This document shows positions 1-8,752 of a DNA stretch of 64,000 bases, piece after piece. A program made the translations under genes and the position numbers. The stretch spans positions 17,159 to 81,158 of the forward strand of contig JAZNCN010000012.1 in assembly GCA_045587545.1 (NCBI GenBank), given 5' to 3'. Source of the DNA: Candidatus Caccoplasma sp. Its GTDB lineage: Bacteria > Bacteroidota > Bacteroidia > Bacteroidales > G3-4614. Below the pieces are notes generated by a model that had not been told where the DNA came from, searched no databases, and saw only the letters and a list, made by a program, of their open reading frames with translations. Each line of letters opens with the position of its first letter. The stretch's first letter is position 1.

Positions 1-566
1 CACTCTCTTTGGACGTTGTACGAGAAATCAAGGAGTTTGATTTTTCAAAAAATCCTACTTTTGATTTTGCTCGAGATATGTTTCTCTTTTCGTTTTATAC
101 ACGAGGAATGGCTTTTGTTGATATGGCATACCTTAGAAAAAAGGATTTGTGCAATGGAATTTTGTCGTATCGAAGGCGCAAAACAGGACAACAATTGTTT
201 ATCAAATGGGAGAAGTGTATGCAGGAGATTGTGGATAAGTACGATACATTACACTCCGTCTATTTATTACCCATTATCAATCCATTGAGCGATATAGATG
301 AACGCAAGCAATACATCTATGTTGCTCAACGAGTAAATTTTTATCTTAAAAAGATAGGAGTAAAATTGCAATTACCTATAAATATTACGATGTATGTTGC
401 CCGTCATAGTTGGGCGAGTATTGCTAAAAGTGTAAATATCCCCGTTTCAGTTATAAGTGAGAGTTTGGGACACAATTCAGAAACGACAACACAGATTTAT
501 TTAACATCAATAGATAATACCATTATCGATAAAGCAAATAATATGATATTGGATTTTTTGGGATAA
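1..566 (+). CDS. Tyrosine site-specific recombinase/integrase, C-terminal catalytic part (5' end lies upstream of the window)
   Basis: Motifs of Bacteroidetes integrases: DMFLFSFYTRGMAFVDMAYL, YVARHSWAS, LGHNSETTTQIYL (catalytic His and Tyr). The frame is open to the window edge. Confidence 0.92.
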   Translation, partial: LSLDVVREIKEFDFSKNPTFDFARDMFLFSFYTRGMAFVDMAYLRKKDLCNGILSYRRRKTGQQLFIKWEKCMQEIVDKYDTLHSVYLLPIINPLSDIDERKQYIYVAQRVNFYLKKIGVKLQLPINITMYVARHSWASIAKSVNIPVSVISESLGHNSETTTQIYLTSIDNTIIDKANNMILDFLG

Positions 567-586
567 AGAGGAAGAAAAATGTGTTT

Positions 587-789
587 TCTCTACATAAGAG
601 AAAGTATAACAAGCGCAAATTTAATGTATTTTTTTTAACTACCATAATGTTTTATTTAATATTTTAAGAAAAAAATATATAGATAAATGAATTTTTTCTT
701 TTGTTAACTCTTCTTTTAAAAAGCAGAATAAATAGGGAGACCATTCATAATAAATATAATATATTTATATACAATCTCTTATGTAGAGA
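587..789. promoter_or_regulatory. Putative invertible promoter segment bounded by 15-bp perfect inverted repeats
   Basis: tctctacataagaga (587-601) is the exact reverse complement of tctcttatgtagaga (775-789). The match extends inward (gtata) after 2 mismatches. It starts 20 bp after the recombinase stop. Confidence 0.8.
616..623 (-). promoter_or_regulatory. Bacteroidetes sigma-ABfr -7 box (TAAATTTG) inside the invertible segment, facing away from the 869 operon
   Basis: caaattta on + reads TAAATTTG on -, matching TAnnTTTG. A TATG (near TTTG) sits at the expected -33 spacing (643-646). No + strand TAnnTTTG was seen between 602 and 868. Confidence 0.6.
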
Positions 790-868
790 GTAGAGAATAG
801 GCTCTACTATTGTTTTATGATACCGCAATATTAGGGTAATTATTATAGGTGTCTTAATTTATTAAATT

Positions 869-1540
869 ATGGTTATTTTTATTATTATTTTGTTAGTCGT
901 TGCGGCGATAATTTTCTTTAAATTAAAAAGTGATCCGAAGTGGCTTAAAGAAATTTATGAAGGGAAAGATGATGAGCAGAAGGAAGTAATTCGTTATTTC
1001 TTACGTGAGGGATGTTTGGCAAGTGTGATGAAAGATGCTGAGTATGACGAATTGCTTGCAGGAAAAATTGCGTCTATAAATCCTAAACAAAAAGCTTTAG
1101 ATAAGCACGGTTTGGATATTGAACAAGTAAATGAAATTCCTCCTGTTAATTTTGAAGGATATGTCTTTGATGATAGCGCTTATGTTAAAAAAGGAGAAGA
1201 TGACAAATGGAGAAGTTCTAAATATCAGATTTCTTGGATTTTCTTTAGCGATACCCAAGTTTATTTCTATCAATATACTTTTAACACAGATGAGCTTAGC
1301 AAACGTGAAGCAACCGATGAGTATTTCTATAAAGATATTGTAAATTTCTCAACATCTTCAACTTCGGAAGAAGTTAAACTATATGATAAATCTGGAAAAT
1401 CACAGCTTAAAACTGTTGACACTGATAAATTCCAAATGGTTGTTCCAGGAGATAAAGTCTCTTGCTCTATGACCAAAACTGCAGAAACAGATAATATTAT
1501 TAAGGCTATGAAGAATAAATTGCGTGAAAAGAAAAATTAA
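869..1540 (+). CDS. Hypothetical protein with N-terminal TM anchor; possibly PH-like beta domain
   Basis: 223-aa ORF with hydrophobic N-terminus, beta-rich C-half and a terminal helix. Its stop overlaps the next start (TAATG). Confidence 0.75.
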   Translation: MVIFIIILLVVAAIIFFKLKSDPKWLKEIYEGKDDEQKEVIRYFLREGCLASVMKDAEYDELLAGKIASINPKQKALDKHGLDIEQVNEIPPVNFEGYVFDDSAYVKKGEDDKWRSSKYQISWIFFSDTQVYFYQYTFNTDELSKREATDEYFYKDIVNFSTSSTSEEVKLYDKSGKSQLKTVDTDKFQMVVPGDKVSCSMTKTAETDNIIKAMKNKLREKKN

Positions 1541-1962
1541 TGAATGAGGAGGATATAGTTTGGCATTATTGCCATAAAAGACCATTGTATAGACCATCAA
1601 CTAATATAAAAACTCTTTTGGTCTATTTGGTTCAATTAATTTATACCTCAATCATTATTAATTTTATATTATTTCAAGCAATTGTACAACTTTGTGGAAA
1701 TATAAATTTTCTACAAAGTTGTATTTGCCTATGCATAATTATAATTCTGTTTAAATATCGTAAGCTTCTTATTCTGTTAATTGAATTATATCAACATTAT
1801 GCACCTGAGCATATTCGGCGTAAATGTATATGTATGCCAACGTGTTCGGAGTATGCAATTTGTTGTATAAGAAAATATAATTTCTTTAAAGCTATAAAAA
1901 AGATATACAATAGATTAACAAGGGAGTGTGTCGGTCAAATATATCATATAGATAATCCATAA
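1540..1962 (+). CDS. YidD-like (membrane protein insertion efficiency factor / DUF37) domain protein with 2 N-terminal TM segments
   Basis: LIELYQ...RRKCICMPTCSEYAICCIRKY...RLTREC resembles the YidD motif YQ...CRFxPTCSxYAxxAIxxxG...RIxRC. Confidence 0.7.
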   Translation: MNEEDIVWHYCHKRPLYRPSTNIKTLLVYLVQLIYTSIIINFILFQAIVQLCGNINFLQSCICLCIIIILFKYRKLLILLIELYQHYAPEHIRRKCICMPTCSEYAICCIRKYNFFKAIKKIYNRLTRECVGQIYHIDNP

Positions 1963-1966
1963 TGTT

Positions 1967-4630
1967 ATGATCTCAAGCGCTTATTTGTCAAATGATGAGT
2001 TGGTAGGAATGAAGATAATAGAGGTAACCTCTATCCCTCATTTGTCTATTATTGATAGTTTGTCTAATATTACATCAGTTGTTTCTGAATATCAGAAAGA
2101 GATGAGTAGTATGCTCTCTGAAATATATCAGTATTATAAGCTAAAGTCTTCTCAGGGAAGAAATATTGATATATGTATAGAACTTATGTGGTTGTCTTTA
2201 CCGTCTGTTAATCAGGTGTATAATGCAGATATTAAATTATATATTATAGTACGATCTATTTCTGAAAATTCAAATATAGTTAACGAAAATATAAATATAA
2301 TTAGTAAAATTATTCAAGGTACACTTGTCAGACAGAAGTATGATTTTGAGATAATTCCAATTGAAGCGTATGAAAAGAATTTATCTCAAATCAAAAAAGA
2401 AAATATTGTAGCATTAGTAAAGGACGAAAACCTTGAAAATTTACAAAATCAAATTATGCCATATTGTTTGTCCTTTGATATCTTCCCAACATGTATAGGG
2501 CAACAATTAAGTAAAATTGTAGGAATAATGAAAGATATTCCCAATAGCGCTATCTCATTCCAATTGATTCCTACTAATTATACCTATAATGAAATAAATG
2601 ATTTAAATTCAACTTCTCAGATTTTAGATACATTATATAGAGGAGTGAATGAGCAAGGCATAGGTAATATAAGCCTTTCGTTAACAGAAAAAGTTTCAAA
2701 AACATATAAATATTACTCTCAGAATAAGAATAATGCATTATTTTTATATAATATATTAGTTTGGGCAAATCAGACAGAAGCATCAAATATTGCATCTAAA
2801 ATATATGGACAATTAACACCCTCTTCCGAATTATCTGCAAATCTTAAGTTTATATCATTATCTCAGAACGACATAGATATTGATAATAACCTATACCCTT
2901 TACCATGGGCAGCCAATGAGGTTATTATAAATACTGAAAGGATATTATGGCAAGGGAGTAATTTATCAATAAATCTATATAGGCTTCCATATTTAATAAC
3001 TGCAGATGAATGCTCAGAATTTTTTAGATTACCAATAGGTAGTAATGATATTACTGCAGGTTTTAAAGTTAACGAGGCAGGAAAAACCAGTAAAACATAT
3101 TCTCAAAATATAATTAATTCAGGCGACATTGAATTAGGTATATTAAAATCATCTTCTTCTAAAGACAGTATAGGCTTATCGTTAAAAGATTTAGCTAAAC
3201 ACATGCTTGTAGTTGGCACACCGGGTTCGGGAAAAACAACCTTCTCGGTAGGATTGCTTGACCGACTTTGGAAAGAGCATCATATCCCATTCCTCGTTAT
3301 TGAGCCTGCAAAAAATGAATATAGGGCATTAGTGCAAAGTATTCCGGAGTTACAGGTCTTCACTCCTGGTAAAAATTTTATATCACCATTTGTATTCAAT
3401 CCATTTGTGCCACCTAAGAATGTAAAACTTGAAACATATAAATCAACCCTAAAAACGGCTTTCGCTGCAGGAGTTTCAATGTCTTCACCTTTGGATAAGA
3501 TTTTTGAAGATACAATAAATAATTGTTATTCAGATTTCAGATGGCTTGATACTTATACAATAGCAGATAAAGGTAAGATATTTAATATTACAGATTTTAT
3601 TAAATGTTTTCAAGAGACATTTGATGAGATTGGATATACCGGAGATGCGCGAAATATTGGTCGTGCGGGTATCGTCCGATTAAAGAGTCTTGTAAACTTG
3701 TTTGACAATTATTTCTCTATTCCCATAGAGGATATGTTGACAAAACCAACAATTATAGAGTTGGCGGCAATTGAAAATAGTGATCAGAAATCTTTGATTA
3801 TAGCCTTATTGCTTTTGTCAATACTTGTATATGTAAATGCAAATTATGTAGGAGAAGGCGGTTTGCGCAACTTTATTTTATTGGAAGAGGCTCATGTTTT
3901 ATTAGATTCTTCAAGTAATGGAGGAGAGGGTGCGGCAAATCCTGCAGCGATAGCGCAAGGATTGGTTAAGAGAATGTTAGCAGAGATTCGTTCATATGGA
4001 GTAGGTTTAGCTATTGCCGATCAATCACCACGTAAAGTAGGTATTGATATTGTCGCATTAACCGATATCAAGGTAGCATTCCGATTGGTGGAGTCTCAAG
4101 ATAAGGAGATATTGGCGAACAGTACCAGTATGACGGATGTTCAAATGGCACGTTTGGCAAAACTAAAACCGGGAGAGTGCTACTTGTTCTTCAATAAATT
4201 AGAAGAACCCGAAGAGATTATCACACCAGATTATCGCTTAGATAATAATATATCAATATCTCTTTCCGATGAAGGCATTAGAGATTTATCAACATATTGG
4301 AGAGATAAGCAGGATAAACTACGTCCATATCCCGAATGTCAATTATGTCCTTATTGCAAGGATTCTTGCAACTATAACCGACGTGTTCTTGCAAAGGAAG
4401 TGGCAAGAAGAATATTCAATAAATATATAAAATCCGGAGCAAAAGATATAGAAAAAGTTCGCTATGTATTCTCGAAAATTAATACGCTTATAATTAGTGA
4501 ACTTAATGATGAACCTTTTGATAGACCTTTGTTGTCATGTGTTAAGGTACATTTATGGAGAAAGATAAAATATGAGACTGTTATTGGAATAGCAGATGTC
4601 ACAATTCAAAAATCATTAGTTAAAGAATAA
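1967..4630 (+). CDS. HerA/FtsK-superfamily (DUF87-type) P-loop ATPase
   Basis: HMLVVGTPGSGKT (Walker A), FLVIEPAKNEY, ILLEEAH (Walker B), EIRSYGVGLAIADQSP, LAKLKPGEC. Long N-terminal extension and C-terminal CQLCPYCKDSC. Confidence 0.85.
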   Translation: MISSAYLSNDELVGMKIIEVTSIPHLSIIDSLSNITSVVSEYQKEMSSMLSEIYQYYKLKSSQGRNIDICIELMWLSLPSVNQVYNADIKLYIIVRSISENSNIVNENINIISKIIQGTLVRQKYDFEIIPIEAYEKNLSQIKKENIVALVKDENLENLQNQIMPYCLSFDIFPTCIGQQLSKIVGIMKDIPNSAISFQLIPTNYTYNEINDLNSTSQILDTLYRGVNEQGIGNISLSLTEKVSKTYKYYSQNKNNALFLYNILVWANQTEASNIASKIYGQLTPSSELSANLKFISLSQNDIDIDNNLYPLPWAANEVIINTERILWQGSNLSINLYRLPYLITADECSEFFRLPIGSNDITAGFKVNEAGKTSKTYSQNIINSGDIELGILKSSSSKDSIGLSLKDLAKHMLVVGTPGSGKTTFSVGLLDRLWKEHHIPFLVIEPAKNEYRALVQSIPELQVFTPGKNFISPFVFNPFVPPKNVKLETYKSTLKTAFAAGVSMSSPLDKIFEDTINNCYSDFRWLDTYTIADKGKIFNITDFIKCFQETFDEIGYTGDARNIGRAGIVRLKSLVNLFDNYFSIPIEDMLTKPTIIELAAIENSDQKSLIIALLLLSILVYVNANYVGEGGLRNFILLEEAHVLLDSSSNGGEGAANPAAIAQGLVKRMLAEIRSYGVGLAIADQSPRKVGIDIVALTDIKVAFRLVESQDKEILANSTSMTDVQMARLAKLKPGECYLFFNKLEEPEEIITPDYRLDNNISISLSDEGIRDLSTYWRDKQDKLRPYPECQLCPYCKDSCNYNRRVLAKEVARRIFNKYIKSGAKDIEKVRYVFSKINTLIISELNDEPFDRPLLSCVKVHLWRKIKYETVIGIADVTIQKSLVKE

Positions 4631-4644
4631 AACTATAGCTGAAT

Positions 4645-5646
4645 ATGAGTGAGGAATTTAATGATGATATGGGTAGCGTTGATGATTCTTTTGAAGATTC
4701 ATCAAGTGAAATAGAATCTGATATAGAGGACTCTGCAACCGAATCAGAATCAGAAGCCAATGAAATAGCCGAAGAGCAGGCTACTGAAATGGAGGCAGAA
4801 GCACAGGAAGCCCAAGCAGAAGCCGAAGCGGAGGCCAATGAGATTGCCGAAGAGCAGTCCACTGAAATGGAGACAGAAGCACAGGAAGCCCAAGCAGAAG
4901 CCGAAGTAGAGGCCAATGAGATTGCCGAAGAGCAGGCTGCTGAAATGGAGGCAGAAGCACAGGAAGCCCAAGCTAATGCAGAGGCAGAAGCCAATGAAAT
5001 AGCCGAGGAACAAGCTACTGAAATGGAAAATGAAGTTCAGGAAGCCCAAGCAGAAGCCGAAGCAGAGGCCAATGAGATTGCCGAAGAGCAGGCTGCTGAA
5101 ATGGAGGCAGAAGCACAGGAAGCCCAAGCAGAAGCCGAAGCGGAGGCCAATGAAATAGCGGAAGAAAATTCTGAAGAAAAGAAAGATGAAGTGTCGCAAG
5201 ATATAGATGAGAGTCAACTATCTCCGTCGGAACTTGCAGAAAAAAGTCGAGAAGAAATGGAACAAGCTCAAAAAGAAGCTGAACAATGGGCAGATGAAAA
5301 TGGAATGGAGCGATGGAGTGATGGATCATTAAGGACAGATTATGAAGAGAGTATAAAAGACGCAGAAGCAGAAAATCAGGCAGAAATGGAGGCTGAGACA
5401 CAACATCAGGCAGAAGTAGAGGCAGAAGAAAGGGCTGCACTGGAGGCAGATGTACAAGCTCAATCAGATGCTTTAAATAAAGAGTACATAGATTTAATGG
5501 ATCGGAAGCAAGCTGCATTTGATAGCGCTGTTGATGCTACTAATGCAGAAGACAGAGATCGTTTTGCTGATATCCAATATGAGATTGGAAAAGAGATGGA
5601 GCAGGTAAGGAGTAGAATTATTGAGAATAACAATAGACTTAAGTAG
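4645..5646 (+). CDS. Highly acidic Glu/Ala-rich protein with 26-aa tandem repeats (predicted long helix/coiled coil)
   Basis: 333-aa ORF in operon orientation; repeat unit EANEIAEEQATEMEAEAQEAQAEAEA. Confidence 0.8.
   Translation: MSEEFNDDMGSVDDSFEDSSSEIESDIEDSATESESEANEIAEEQATEMEAEAQEAQAEAEAEANEIAEEQSTEMETEAQEAQAEAEVEANEIAEEQAAEMEAEAQEAQANAEAEANEIAEEQATEMENEVQEAQAEAEAEANEIAEEQAAEMEAEAQEAQAEAEAEANEIAEENSEEKKDEVSQDIDESQLSPSELAEKSREEMEQAQKEAEQWADENGMERWSDGSLRTDYEESIKDAEAENQAEMEAETQHQAEVEAEERAALEADVQAQSDALNKEYIDLMDRKQAAFDSAVDATNAEDRDRFADIQYEIGKEMEQVRSRIIENNNRLK
4753..5166 (+). repeat. Intragenic 78-bp tandem repeat, 5 full copies plus a partial sixth
   Basis: Units begin ga(a/g)gccaatga at 4753, 4831, 4909, 4987, 5065 and 5143. 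Confidence 0.95.
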
Positions 5647-5648
5647 AT

Positions 5649-5792
5649 ATGGCAAAATGTAATGATGACTTGTCTGTTTCTGAACTTTATGAACAAGCTC
5701 AAGAAGATAGGGATAGAAATGCAGATACAATATATAGAATTGGAGAAGAGATAGATCGGATAAGAAAAAATATGGAAGAACGTGATAGATAG
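5649..5792 (+). CDS. Small 47-aa protein (not in ORF track), similar to the C-terminus of the upstream acidic protein
   Basis: ATG 2 nt after the previous stop; MAKCNDDLSVSELYEQAQEDRDRNADTIYRIGEEIDRIRKNMEERDR*. It has 12/21 identities to EDRDRFADIQYEIGKEMEQVR. Confidence 0.65.
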   Translation: MAKCNDDLSVSELYEQAQEDRDRNADTIYRIGEEIDRIRKNMEERDR

Positions 5793-5857
5793 AGTTGGAG
5801 GCGAAATAGAAGATTAATAGAAGAAATAAATAATATTAACTTAATTAAATTGTTATT

Positions 5858-7186
5858 ATGGGCTGGTTTGGAATAACTACAGATAAAGACCCTAAAGAAG
5901 CCGCATACAATCGTGGCGAAAAGAGTTTTAGAGATGTAATTCAAAATGAATCGCCAGGAGAACTTTTGTATGCAATCGACCCTCGTGAAGATTTTAATAC
6001 AGGAAGTACATTGATAGTACACCCTGGAGAAGTTGCTTTGTTTGAAAAAAACGGAATAATTCAAGAAGAATTTCCAAATGGAAGATATAAATTGTCAACA
6101 GAAAATTATCCGTTTATAAGCAATTTACGTAATATGTTTACGGGAGGAGTTAGCTCTTTTAATTGCAGAATACACTGGTTTAGAGATGCTGATTCAAAAG
6201 AGATTAAGTGGGGCACTCAAACTCCTATAGAGATAGAGGATAAAATATATAATCAAGAAGCAAAATTAGGTGTTGCAGCAGTTTATAAGATAAAAATTAC
6301 CAATCCTACATTGTGCCTAAAAAAACTACTTGGTAATAATATATATATCAAGAGTGAAGAAGAGATGAATGAGTATTGGGGTGGAGAGTTAGCTTCAATA
6401 ATTAGGGAAGAGTTGTATAATACTCTACGTAAATATCCGGATACTTTGTTGGATATCATCAATCAAGTTAGGACAATTTCAAAAGACCTTCGTCCTGAAA
6501 TTGACGAAGTAATATCTGAATATGGTATTCAATTAGTTAAGTTCTCTATAGTATCTATTAATATATTAGATGACTTTGTTGAAAGAATAAGAGCCAATAA
6601 AGATATATATCGTAATAAAGATATTGAATCTATGGCTGAAGCAAAGGCAAGGGTAAATATAGCTCAAGGAGATTTGGGCGTTATGGAAGTGTTGGGCGAA
6701 AATTGGGGACGTCAAAAAGCTTATGAGGTTCTTAATAATATATCGCAAAATCCAGGAGCAGGGGGAGTAGCTTCTGCTGGTGCAGGCTTAGGAATGGGAA
6801 TTAGTGCTGGTAGCGCTTTTGGAGCAATGGCGAGTCAGTTATTTTCACCATTTAATAGTCAACAGCAACCTTCTCAACAACAGCCGCAAGGCCGATTCCA
6901 ACAAAGAACGGTTAATGCGGAACAAACAAAGACAGCGACACCCCCACCGCCTCCCGTGAATCAGCAAGCCGTAGAATTTTATGTTTATGTAAATAATACA
7001 CAAATGGGTCCATACGATAAACTATCGTTGGTTAAACTTATACAGCAGGGGCAACTCACTACTGATACTTTAGTGTGGCGAGAAGGTATGAAAGAATGGA
7101 GCCCCGCTAAAAATACAGAGTTATCTGAATTATTTAATCAAGGATCTGTGCCCCCTCCAGTTCCTCCTATGCCTCCTAAATTTTAG
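5858..7186 (+). CDS. SPFH/Band-7 (YdjI/'virion core protein'-like) protein with C-terminal GYF_2 (DUF4339) domain
   Basis: GSTLIVHPGEVALFEKNG...GRYKLSTENYP...KWGT, then GAGLGMGISAG linker, then FYVYVNNTQMGPYD...LTTDTLVWREGMKEWSPA (GYF_2), plus Pro-rich tracts. Confidence 0.85.
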   Translation: MGWFGITTDKDPKEAAYNRGEKSFRDVIQNESPGELLYAIDPREDFNTGSTLIVHPGEVALFEKNGIIQEEFPNGRYKLSTENYPFISNLRNMFTGGVSSFNCRIHWFRDADSKEIKWGTQTPIEIEDKIYNQEAKLGVAAVYKIKITNPTLCLKKLLGNNIYIKSEEEMNEYWGGELASIIREELYNTLRKYPDTLLDIINQVRTISKDLRPEIDEVISEYGIQLVKFSIVSINILDDFVERIRANKDIYRNKDIESMAEAKARVNIAQGDLGVMEVLGENWGRQKAYEVLNNISQNPGAGGVASAGAGLGMGISAGSAFGAMASQLFSPFNSQQQPSQQQPQGRFQQRTVNAEQTKTATPPPPPVNQQAVEFYVYVNNTQMGPYDKLSLVKLIQQGQLTTDTLVWREGMKEWSPAKNTELSELFNQGSVPPPVPPMPPKF

Positions 7187-7192
7187 AAATTT

Positions 7193-7870
7193 ATGAAAAA
7201 GAATATATTATTTTTAGCTACGTTATCCATATTCTTGTTGGTATTTGAGATTTTATTCTTTTTACTTGGAGATAATTCTACACGAACAACCTCGTTGTGG
7301 ATTTCATATGGATTTATCCATTTTTCATATCTAATATTTGTTCTATCTGTATTTGTTAACAAAGGAGGACCTGGAGATAATGGATATGATGTCTCAACTG
7401 TTTATGTAACATGGAAATACTTTGTTTTAGAATTTATAGTAGGTCTGATTTTTATTTGGATTAATTCTGAAAGTATTGGGTGGGCTTTAACGGTTCAATT
7501 ATTATTAGCTGCTATTTCAATTGTTATTTGGTTCGTCAATCTTATGGCGAATGAACATACTGATAACTCTTTAAGGGTTCAAGAGAAAGAGTTTGCATAT
7601 ATTCAGACCTGTTCTTTAAAACTAAAAATGATATCTAATAATTTATCAGATATCGATGCAAAAAAGTTCGTAGAAAAGTGTTATGATGCAGTATGCTCAT
7701 CTCCATCACGCAGTAATGCTAATTTAGCGATGATTGAAAAAGTAATTTTAGATTCAATAGATGAATTAGAAGAAGCTGTCTATACAAATAACATAGATTT
7801 AATAAAAGATAAATCAAATAAAATTTTAAGACTAATAGCAGAAAGGAATTTAAAACTAAAATTTAAATAA
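7193..7870 (+). CDS. Membrane protein, 4 TM helices plus C-terminal helical domain
   Basis: Four hydrophobic segments in the first ~120 aa; soluble helical tail ending IAERNLKLK. Confidence 0.75.
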   Translation: MKKNILFLATLSIFLLVFEILFFLLGDNSTRTTSLWISYGFIHFSYLIFVLSVFVNKGGPGDNGYDVSTVYVTWKYFVLEFIVGLIFIWINSESIGWALTVQLLLAAISIVIWFVNLMANEHTDNSLRVQEKEFAYIQTCSLKLKMISNNLSDIDAKKFVEKCYDAVCSSPSRSNANLAMIEKVILDSIDELEEAVYTNNIDLIKDKSNKILRLIAERNLKLKFK

Positions 7871-7874
7871 AGAT

Positions 7875-8477
7875 ATGTCAGTTGAAAGTTTAAGTATAAA
7901 ATGTCCCGGTTGTGGACAACCTGTATCAACAGGACAAAATATTTGCGAATGGTGTAAAGGTCCTATAGTAATCACAACTTTTAATAGTGTTGCATCTATG
8001 CCCTTACCCGAAATTAATAAGTATGCAAATAGCTATAAAAAGGCATTGGCAGATTATCCCGACGATAAGTTGTTGAATACATCAATTGCTATGTGTTACC
8101 TTAGGTTAAAATTATATGATAAAGCCTTAGATGCTTTTGAGAAGGCAATAGAAGATAATTTTGATAATCCTGAAACTTATTTTTATGCAGCAATTTCTAT
8201 ACTTAAAGGGAAAAAAGCATTTTTGCAACAACGACAAGAGATTAATAAAATTGAGGAATATATAGATGCTGCATTAATGATTGAACCAAGGGGAATATTT
8301 TATTATTTTAAGGCATATATTAGGTATGATTATTATAAACGCAAATGCTATAATGTGTTGCCTGATTATAATGAGTTGCAGGAGCAAGCCTTTAATGCAG
8401 GATTATCAGATATTGATATTCAACAATTATTTGAATTGTTAAATGTTGAAAGGCCACAAGAGTTAAGATTGAATTAA
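7875..8477 (+). CDS. Zinc-ribbon + TPR protein
   Basis: CPGCG...CEWC, then TPR-like AMCYLRLKLYDKALDAFEKAIEDNFDNPETYFYAA. Confidence 0.8.
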   Translation: MSVESLSIKCPGCGQPVSTGQNICEWCKGPIVITTFNSVASMPLPEINKYANSYKKALADYPDDKLLNTSIAMCYLRLKLYDKALDAFEKAIEDNFDNPETYFYAAISILKGKKAFLQQRQEINKIEEYIDAALMIEPRGIFYYFKAYIRYDYYKRKCYNVLPDYNELQEQAFNAGLSDIDIQQLFELLNVERPQELRLN

Positions 8478-8620: not shown

Positions 8621-8683
8621 ATCACCCGTAGGGTAGCGTCAGCCAACAACTAACAGCTGACACCTAACAACTAAAAATTGATA
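8621..8683 (+). repeat. REP-like intergenic element (cccgtaggg hairpin plus caacta(a) short repeats)
   Basis: Related copies at ~10302-10356 (+), 13241-13292 (-), 20592-20645 (-) and 40968-41017 (-). Confidence 0.65.
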
Positions 8684-8752
8684 AATGGCAACTTTTTGCA
8701 ATTTAACCTTAAAAATATGTGGCAAAAGTTTTTTATTCAGAATATATTACAC

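Follow-up and report, generated by a model that had tools for sequence, protein, structure and literature searches.

A probable recombinase-linked invertible promoter, found OFF in the assembly, ahead of a membrane-associated operon in a ruminant-gut Bacteroidales

Does the short, repeat-bracketed segment that follows a tyrosine recombinase gene at this locus act as a promoter switch, and is that switch still able to flip? The window (the whole stretch of DNA analysed here, 64,000 nucleotides) begins inside the recombinase gene and therefore carries only its last 187 codons. These are followed by a pair of inverted repeats and then by a seven-gene operon with every gene on the + strand (Table 1). 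The inverted repeats, the adjacent tyrosine recombinase and an outward-pointing promoter box that characterize Tsr-type switches are all present. We consider it likely that the locus is a live Tsr-type invertible promoter, or inverton, that was assembled OFF.

Table 1. Coordinates of the candidate switch, its recombinase gene and the cargo operon in the window.
Feature	Position	Strand	Description
Tyrosine recombinase gene, 3' part	3-566	+	187 codons; full gene G000:C12:16513-17724, 403 aa
Left inverted repeat	core 587-601, extended to 608		core TCTCTACATAAGAGA; candidate recombinase core site
Predicted invertible segment	602-774		173 bp, AT-rich, non-coding
-7 promoter box	616-623	minus	TAAATTTG, Bacteroidota-type; 14 nt inside left repeat
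Right inverted repeat	core 775-789, extended from 768		exact reverse complement of 587-601
Terminator-like hairpin and T-run in leader	789-808	+	directly past right repeat
g1	869-1540	+	N-terminal TM helix and PH-like domain, no Pfam family
g2	1540-1962	+	two hydrophobic segments and YidD domain
g3	1967-4630	+	887-aa HerA/FtsK-like P-loop ATPase
g4	4645-5646	+	333 aa, very acidic E/A/Q-rich repeats almost throughout
g5	5858-7186	+	SPFH (Band_7_1) and GYF_2
g6	7193-7870	+	four hydrophobic segments and helical tail
g7	7875-8477	+	zinc ribbon and TPR

The original prediction described perfect 15-bp inverted repeats around 173 bp directly behind the recombinase, each with an internal dyad, and both parts of this description hold. 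The left repeat begins 20 nt past the recombinase stop codon. The 15-mer occurs only twice in the 2.13-Mb, 29-contig genome, at 587-601 and 775-789, and the extended arms (587-608 and 768-789) match at 91% over 22 nt, with 159 nt between them. Each repeat contains the dyad TCTCT-ACATA-AGAGA, which has one arm mismatch against the consensus of a switch family, TCTCTT-NNN-AAGAGA; the same dyad and asymmetric-centre layout recurs throughout that 22-member family, with centres that co-vary. Genome-wide, one such repeat is not remarkable, because perfect inverted repeats of at least 15 nt with spacers of 30-750 nt number 22 in the genome against 2-8 in five 500-bp-block shuffles of it. The weight of the pair lies in its place, a 300-bp gap, and in a consensus common to 21 other pairs; it is no chance repeat.

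Promoters of Bacteroides follow the consensus TTTG ... TAnnTTTG. The sole TAnnTTTG on either strand within 64-1146 is the box at 616-623, which lies on the minus strand near the left repeat, as had been predicted. It reads toward the recombinase gene and away from the first operon gene, g1. By eye, no clear -33 TTTG was found in the sequence upstream of this box. On the + strand, no -7 box is present within 64-1146 or in the only sizeable gap of the operon (5647-5857), in agreement with the claim that the operon has no alternative forward promoter box. The neighboring housekeeping gene nhaD has such a box, TACCTTTG, 63 nt before its ATG. With its single box pointing away from g1 and no other -7 box ahead of the operon, the locus is in the OFF orientation, as originally proposed. 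The further proposal, that inversion brings the box near the right repeat and has it fire into g1, stands as geometry: in an inverted segment the box would occupy 753-760 on the + strand, 108 nt ahead of the ATG at 869. Only the OFF form is seen here.

These features suggest the following mechanism. The adjacent recombinase would bind the two inverted core sites, and strand exchange inside their identical asymmetric centre would flip the 173-bp segment, which carries the only promoter predicted to be able to drive the operon (869-8477). In the assembled form, the box would drive transcription leftward, across the left repeat and into the recombinase gene from its 3' end, leaving the operon OFF. 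In the inverted form, the predicted start of transcription lies inside the right repeat or immediately ahead of it, and the transcript would run on through the repeat into g1. A small ON subpopulation would then express a costly membrane-associated module, with the majority remaining OFF as in published Bacteroides switches. The leader adds a possible further element. The repeat end GTAGAGA is tandemly duplicated (783-789 and 790-796), and CTCTAC at 802-807 pairs with GTAGAGA to give the terminator-like hairpin, which could block transcription arriving from the recombinase gene or attenuate transcripts of the ON form. Folding of the leader (775-870) was not above that of shuffled sequences (z -1.1), and an Rfam search of 400-1100 returned one chance snoRNA match only (E 0.87).

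The recombinase matches the Pfam families Phage_int_SAM_5 (66.7 bits) and Phage_integrase (25.0 bits, just below the 27.1 cut-off). Its nearest solved structure is the archaeal XerA (4a8e), and the alignment spans the catalytic domain. The catalytic residues of tyrosine recombinases are known, and six recombinase paralogues were compared at the corresponding positions. R250, K276, R350-H351, H373 and Y382 are invariant among them, as are the motifs RRKTG, ARHSWAS and GH(N/D)SExTTQIY. As we read the alignment to XerA, these invariant motifs contain the catalytic Lys, the second Arg and its His, the third His and the Tyr nucleophile. In this recombinase a Tyr takes the place of the first His of HxxR, and the first catalytic Arg is probably R250, at a position where the XerA alignment is not clean and remains ambiguous. 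The ORF is intact. A serine-invertase switch of the Mpi or Hin/Gin type (Mpi is a serine recombinase) was considered and ruled out, since the adjacent enzyme matches tyrosine-recombinase families only.

The switch is one of several. A genome-wide repeat scan placed five paralogous switches in the window's genome, the four others on contigs C19, C8, C5 and C29 with spacers of 139-169 nt, and TCTCTT-NNN-AAGAGA is the design common to the family. The C5 and C29 switches adjoin recombinase paralogues (55-60% identity), which, with the window's own contig C12, makes three of the five recombinase-adjacent. All five carry one strict TAnnTTTG each, 12-14 nt from one repeat and pointing outward through that repeat. 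We then searched 12 genomes of the genus for the pattern 'site, 90-220 nt, site'. Five genomes yielded 21 pairs (4, 4, 5, 1 and 7 per genome), and a reversed control pattern yielded none in any of the 12. The window's switch was missed by this search because one of its arm bases is off consensus; it brings the family to 22.

Two regularities run through this family. The first concerns the sites. In 20 of the 21 pattern pairs, the two sites are exact reverse complements of each other, the central trinucleotide included, and this trinucleotide varies between loci, so that complementarity by chance would be expected at 1/64 per locus. Tyrosine recombinases need identical overlap regions in both partner sites, and co-varying centres are therefore what such an enzyme would impose. 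They likely mark the crossover region of TCTCTT-N3-AAGAGA. A three-base centre is never self-complementary and thus gives each site a polarity. The second concerns the promoter. Of the 22 switches, 15 have an outward-pointing strict -7 box at 12-16 nt from one repeat; the chance of a box at that place is 0.009-0.02 per switch, and that of at least 15 of 22 is ~1e-21. Among the other seven, one has its box at 25 nt and six have one-mismatch boxes at the equivalent place. In several members, the box is in addition preceded by a TTTG block, ~19 nt upstream. Recombinases are fewer than switches (4 for 5 in the window's genome, 2 for 4 in G001 and 1 for 7 in G011), so some enzymes must act in trans. 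With both of its states present, the 22-member family is a compact set for learning how one to four recombinases serve several sites.

The cargo behind other family switches includes lipocalin-like lipoproteins, BspA-type LRR proteins and outer-membrane barrels. A sister switch at G000:C29:187-5037 (L058), beside a paralogous recombinase and also assembled OFF, precedes a conflict-system-like operon encoding a 518-aa HAD/NIF-like protein, two DUF488 proteins and a DuOB protein. Several further observations were made in passing. At the C19, C8, C29, L041, L044, L045 and L059 switches, a second conserved motif, TGTTTAGC(A/G)A, has one copy ~17 nt beyond one of the repeats and another within the segment; it is absent from the window's own switch. 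The copies, direct in OFF members and inverted in the ON member, may be arm-type sites for the N-terminal domain of the recombinases. At G011:C27:16318-16522 (L053), the same central trinucleotide is present in direct rather than inverted orientation, and this switch may be locked or deletion-prone. Elsewhere on C29 (G000:C29:22824-24300), a full-length recombinase paralogue has neither a switch nor the 5' part of the downstream lipoprotein gene, both of which are kept by its orthologue G007:C92, where the switch is ON. A dispersed intergenic repeat of CAACTAACAACTAA-like units occurs at ~8635-8685 of the window, at G000:C29:24455-24510 and in several other repeat pairs of the genome.

Both orientations are found within the family. 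States were called from the box, ON when it points toward the 5' end of the neighboring gene and OFF when toward the 3' end, with neighbors checked with Pfam. By this measure, the OFF state holds for 17 of the 22 switches, among them the five of the window's genome, and five are ON. The ON members are the orthologous loci G001:C54 and G011:C26, where the box faces an outer-membrane beta-barrel gene; the recombinase-adjacent G007:C92, where it faces a 129-aa gene; G011:C10; and probably G007:C44, whose box is a one-mismatch variant. The G001:C54 (L038) and G011:C26 (L052) switch sits between divergent outer-membrane beta-barrel and LPG_synthase_C (MprF-like) genes, and flipping might there toggle between two genes rather than simply turn one ON or OFF.

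One orthologous pair is in opposite states. G001:C32 and G011:C10, from two species, have collinear orthologous flanks (76% identity for the outer-membrane protein and 44% for the BspA-like LRR protein) with the promoter block at opposite ends. Only with one of them inverted do the two inner segments align, at a score of 54 (z 4.0) that none of 300 shuffles attained; without inversion they score 27 (z -0.1), a value attained by 157 of 300 shuffles. From these alignments, the opposite states of C32 and C10 are read as comparative evidence that the switch family inverts. The segment of G007:C92 likewise matches that of C19 only when inverted (z 6.0 against 1.3 uninverted). In this subfamily, a TTTAGC motif occurs once outside and once inside the segment; five OFF members have the two copies in direct orientation, whereas in G007:C92, which is ON, they are inverted, the inner copy sitting where inversion predicts. 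Contigs also end at switches in two cases (G007:C71:6-183, and G010:C184, which ends at the repeat); this fits assembly trouble at a heterogeneous site and is weak evidence.

For the window's own locus, we turned to public sequence data. The window stretch was found, whole or in part, in 18 public runs from 8 studies; the runs with an organism label are gut metagenomes, some carrying a goat or sheep label. Contigs of four runs (X1, X2, X5 and X6) were placed on window 1-2000, at a depth of 2-7. X2 contigs cross the left repeat at 292-643 and the right one at 635-912, and a single X5 contig (459-1242) spans the two together; all of these have the orientation of the window. X1 leaves 470-737 uncovered, and the X6 contig 585-735 bridges neither repeat. 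No inverted junctions or strand-changing joints occur in the contigs of the four runs at this depth, with the repeats bridged in X2 and X5 only. Because depth is 2-7 and contigs drop minority forms, these contigs neither show nor exclude an ON minority. In X2 and X5, positions 773-774 are TT instead of the AA of the window, which makes the repeat a perfect 22-mer, and the repeat is therefore maintained across strains. In all four runs, contig depth spikes to 545, with many loose ends, at 68-134 and 202-268; these are conserved recombinase stretches shared with paralogues in other community members.

A same-locus comparison within the genus was precluded, because a DNA search of 11 other species with window 1-1600 matched recombinase paralogues only. 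Outside these, four loci (L059, L060, L062 and L102, the last from a Bacteroidales MAG of dairy cattle colon) pair a g1 relative (66-68% identity) with a recombinase relative (54-67%). In each, a family switch separates the two genes and is OFF, its strict box facing the recombinase. L062 and L102 have an additional near-box, TCTATTTG, at the other end of the segment. The arrangement of switch and cargo is thus conserved, and only the OFF form is seen at window-type loci. The window segment gave no significant alignment in either orientation with the inner segments of L059, L062 and L102, which are too diverged. A similarity of the right end of L062 to the C12 promoter block was rejected after it failed a shuffle test.

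The predominance of OFF forms raises the alternative of a decayed or locked switch, of real inverton ancestry, that no longer flips, its operon being silent or expressed by read-through from the recombinase gene. It would account for the OFF form being the only one in the contigs of two of the four runs and at all four orthologous loci, and for a core with one arm mismatch against the family consensus. Decay is also known in the family, in which a switch was lost at G000:C29:22824-24014, the left site is mutated at G007:C81 and the centres are in direct orientation at G011:C27. The 15-mers at this locus are nevertheless still perfect complements, and two other samples have them as perfect 22-mers; the recombinase keeps an intact ORF and conserved motifs; and a strong OFF bias is normal in live switches of this kind, as the available text of PMC4611039 describes. 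We regard a locked switch as improbable, although it is the best of the alternatives to a live one.

The OFF orientation of the box could also have a meaning of its own. The box may chiefly damp the recombinase, as an antisense promoter, with the operon expressed from another, non-canonical promoter and its cargo not gated. The box points into the recombinase 3' end in five of the six recombinase-adjacent switches of the genus, and 20-28 nt separate stop codon and repeat in the three such switches of the window's genome. The same box is found, however, in switches without an adjacent recombinase, where it points at nothing useful when OFF; ON members aim it at gene 5' ends; and g1 is preceded by no alternative -7 box. 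As the main role of the box, antisense control is thus very unlikely, but it could coexist with a live invertible promoter. Least credible, and a poor fit to the data, is the reading of the repeats as ends of a mobile element (MITE, IS remnant or island integration site) rather than of an expression switch: the recombinase and operon do make up an accessory block, flanked by the housekeeping genes der and nhaD; window 1-1600, which spans just the recombinase end, the switch and g1, matches only recombinase paralogues in 11 other species of the genus; and the cargo has relatives across phyla. The repeats, however, enclose just 173 non-coding bp rather than the island, the two island borders are linked by no repeat of at least 11 nt, whether direct or inverted, the 15-mer is not dispersed in the genome, and the family has its promoter box at a fixed offset ahead of varied genes.

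If a live invertible promoter is the preferred reading, the nature of its cargo becomes of interest. The model of g1 has a pLDDT of 92.3, and its top VIA-align matches are almost all PH, PTB or FERM-F3 domains, with Z of 9.3-6.3, values that can reflect a common fold only; a PH-like fold is accordingly predicted from the model. Foldseek against the PDB gave nothing for g1 at E <=0.001, and the ESM Atlas gave unnamed clusters only. For g4, tblastn found no match in 57 related loci. Relatives of g1 occur with subsets of g2, g3, g5, g6 and g7 in Prevotella, Bacteroides, Clostridia, Paenibacillus, Microbacterium and others, a spread of the module from Bacteroidota to Bacillota and Actinomycetota. 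The cargo is a conserved, uncharacterised membrane-associated module.

A recombinase match is present in four of the 57 loci related to the cargo. Among the 53 recombinase-less loci, 33 were scanned for upstream repeats; 20 were dropped by hand, mostly for little upstream sequence or as distant relatives (L068, L076, L077, L081, L084, L090, L092, L093, L095, L097-L101 and L110-L115). A TCTCT..AGAGA site was found upstream in none of the 33, and unrelated 12-14 nt repeats in nine. Since the recombinase is confined to four of 57 loci and the family site is absent from the 33 scanned, the switch is a lineage-specific addition to an older module.

A search of the seven cargo proteins against PADLOC-DB 2.0 (2023) gave no complete match to a catalogued anti-phage defence system. 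The database returned partial HerA and mad8 matches for g3 (E 1e-12 to 4e-4) and a weak LeoBC match for g5 (E 0.002). PHROGs gave ATPase-type matches for g3 only, and a literature search found no paper joining any three of SPFH, HerA, YidD and anti-phage. We tentatively suggest that the switch gates a previously undescribed, widespread membrane-associated system that is OFF-biased because it is costly. This system may be a new anti-phage or anti-plasmid membrane defence, given the resemblance of such an OFF-biased, costly cargo to the defence-like DUF488/DuOB cargo of the sister switch, and the OFF-state promoter, antisense to the recombinase, may also help to set the OFF bias. This broader proposal is considerably more doubtful than the presence of the switch itself. 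Placement behind a switch flags the conserved, uncharacterised module as something preferably expressed in a subpopulation only, a useful lead to its function.

Comparison to known systems places the switch in a familiar class with unfamiliar cargo. In the fimS switch of E. coli, the tyrosine recombinases FimB and FimE are encoded beside a short invertible promoter, and recombinase expression in turn responds to how the switch is oriented. fimS has 9-bp repeats and depends on accessory proteins. Its likeness to the window's switch is one of layout; the two differ in phylum and promoter type. The cargo has a partial counterpart in the envelope-stress module PspA-YdjGHI (SamGHI) of B. subtilis, in which a soluble SPFH/Band 7 protein and zinc-ribbon and multi-pass membrane proteins are likewise encoded in one operon (PMC8581546, bioRxiv 10.1101/2021.02.15.431232). 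The resemblance of the g5, g6 and g7 trio to YdjGHI is at the domain level only. The window's operon has extra PH-like, YidD-like, HerA-like and acidic-repeat genes, and no pspA-like gene is found among its genes (869-8477).

Closer relatives of the switch are found in Bacteroides, in which invertible promoters that adjoin a recombinase and are assembled 'off' are established, according to the accessible parts of three reports (PMC4611039, bioRxiv 10.1101/521070, PMC13139388). BT4014-13 is described there with an upstream recombinase, 18-bp repeats and a near-consensus promoter assembled 'off', its inversion confirmed by PCR (bioRxiv 10.1101/521070). It has the same order as the window: recombinase, repeat-flanked 'off' promoter and intracellular conflict-type genes. 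As described, its restriction-enzyme genes respond to phage (bioRxiv 10.1101/521070), whereas the window's cargo is not a recognised defence system. BT1927, which governs the S-layer of B. thetaiotaomicron, has an adjacent recombinase and 22-bp repeats, and is ON in ~1 in 1,000 cultured cells; for a B. fragilis homologue, a single orientation accounted for 99.992% in vitro and for 92% in a stool sample (PMC4611039).

BT1927 with its seven sister loci and the B. fragilis Tsr-type switches resemble the window's switch in several respects, as far as the available descriptions go. A tyrosine recombinase likewise lies beside a short promoter segment bracketed by repeats; the repeats are imperfectly palindromic, ~17-22 bp long, and occur in several paralogous copies per genome; their OFF bias is strong, in keeping with the OFF form seen at the window's locus; and the cargo is surface or envelope associated. 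The Tsr proteins are likened to the window's recombinase by gene layout. The differences lie in detail. The consensus TCTCTT-N3-AAGAGA is unlike the published GTTAC-N7-GTAAC of BT1927-type switches (available text of PMC4611039), and the segment is 173 bp against 256-301 bp in those switches. A cytoplasmic-membrane module with an ATPase takes the place of the S-layer lipoprotein and OmpA-like protein that are described for BT1927. Large inverton catalogues exist (PMC11602134, in the part available), and these may already list the motif. The locus is most likely an additional Bacteroidales Tsr-type invertible promoter, of a kind already known, with an unusual and uncharacterised cargo. As such it broadens the range of recombinase-linked invertible promoters, known from human-gut Bacteroides, to a small-genome Bacteroidales genus from ruminant guts.
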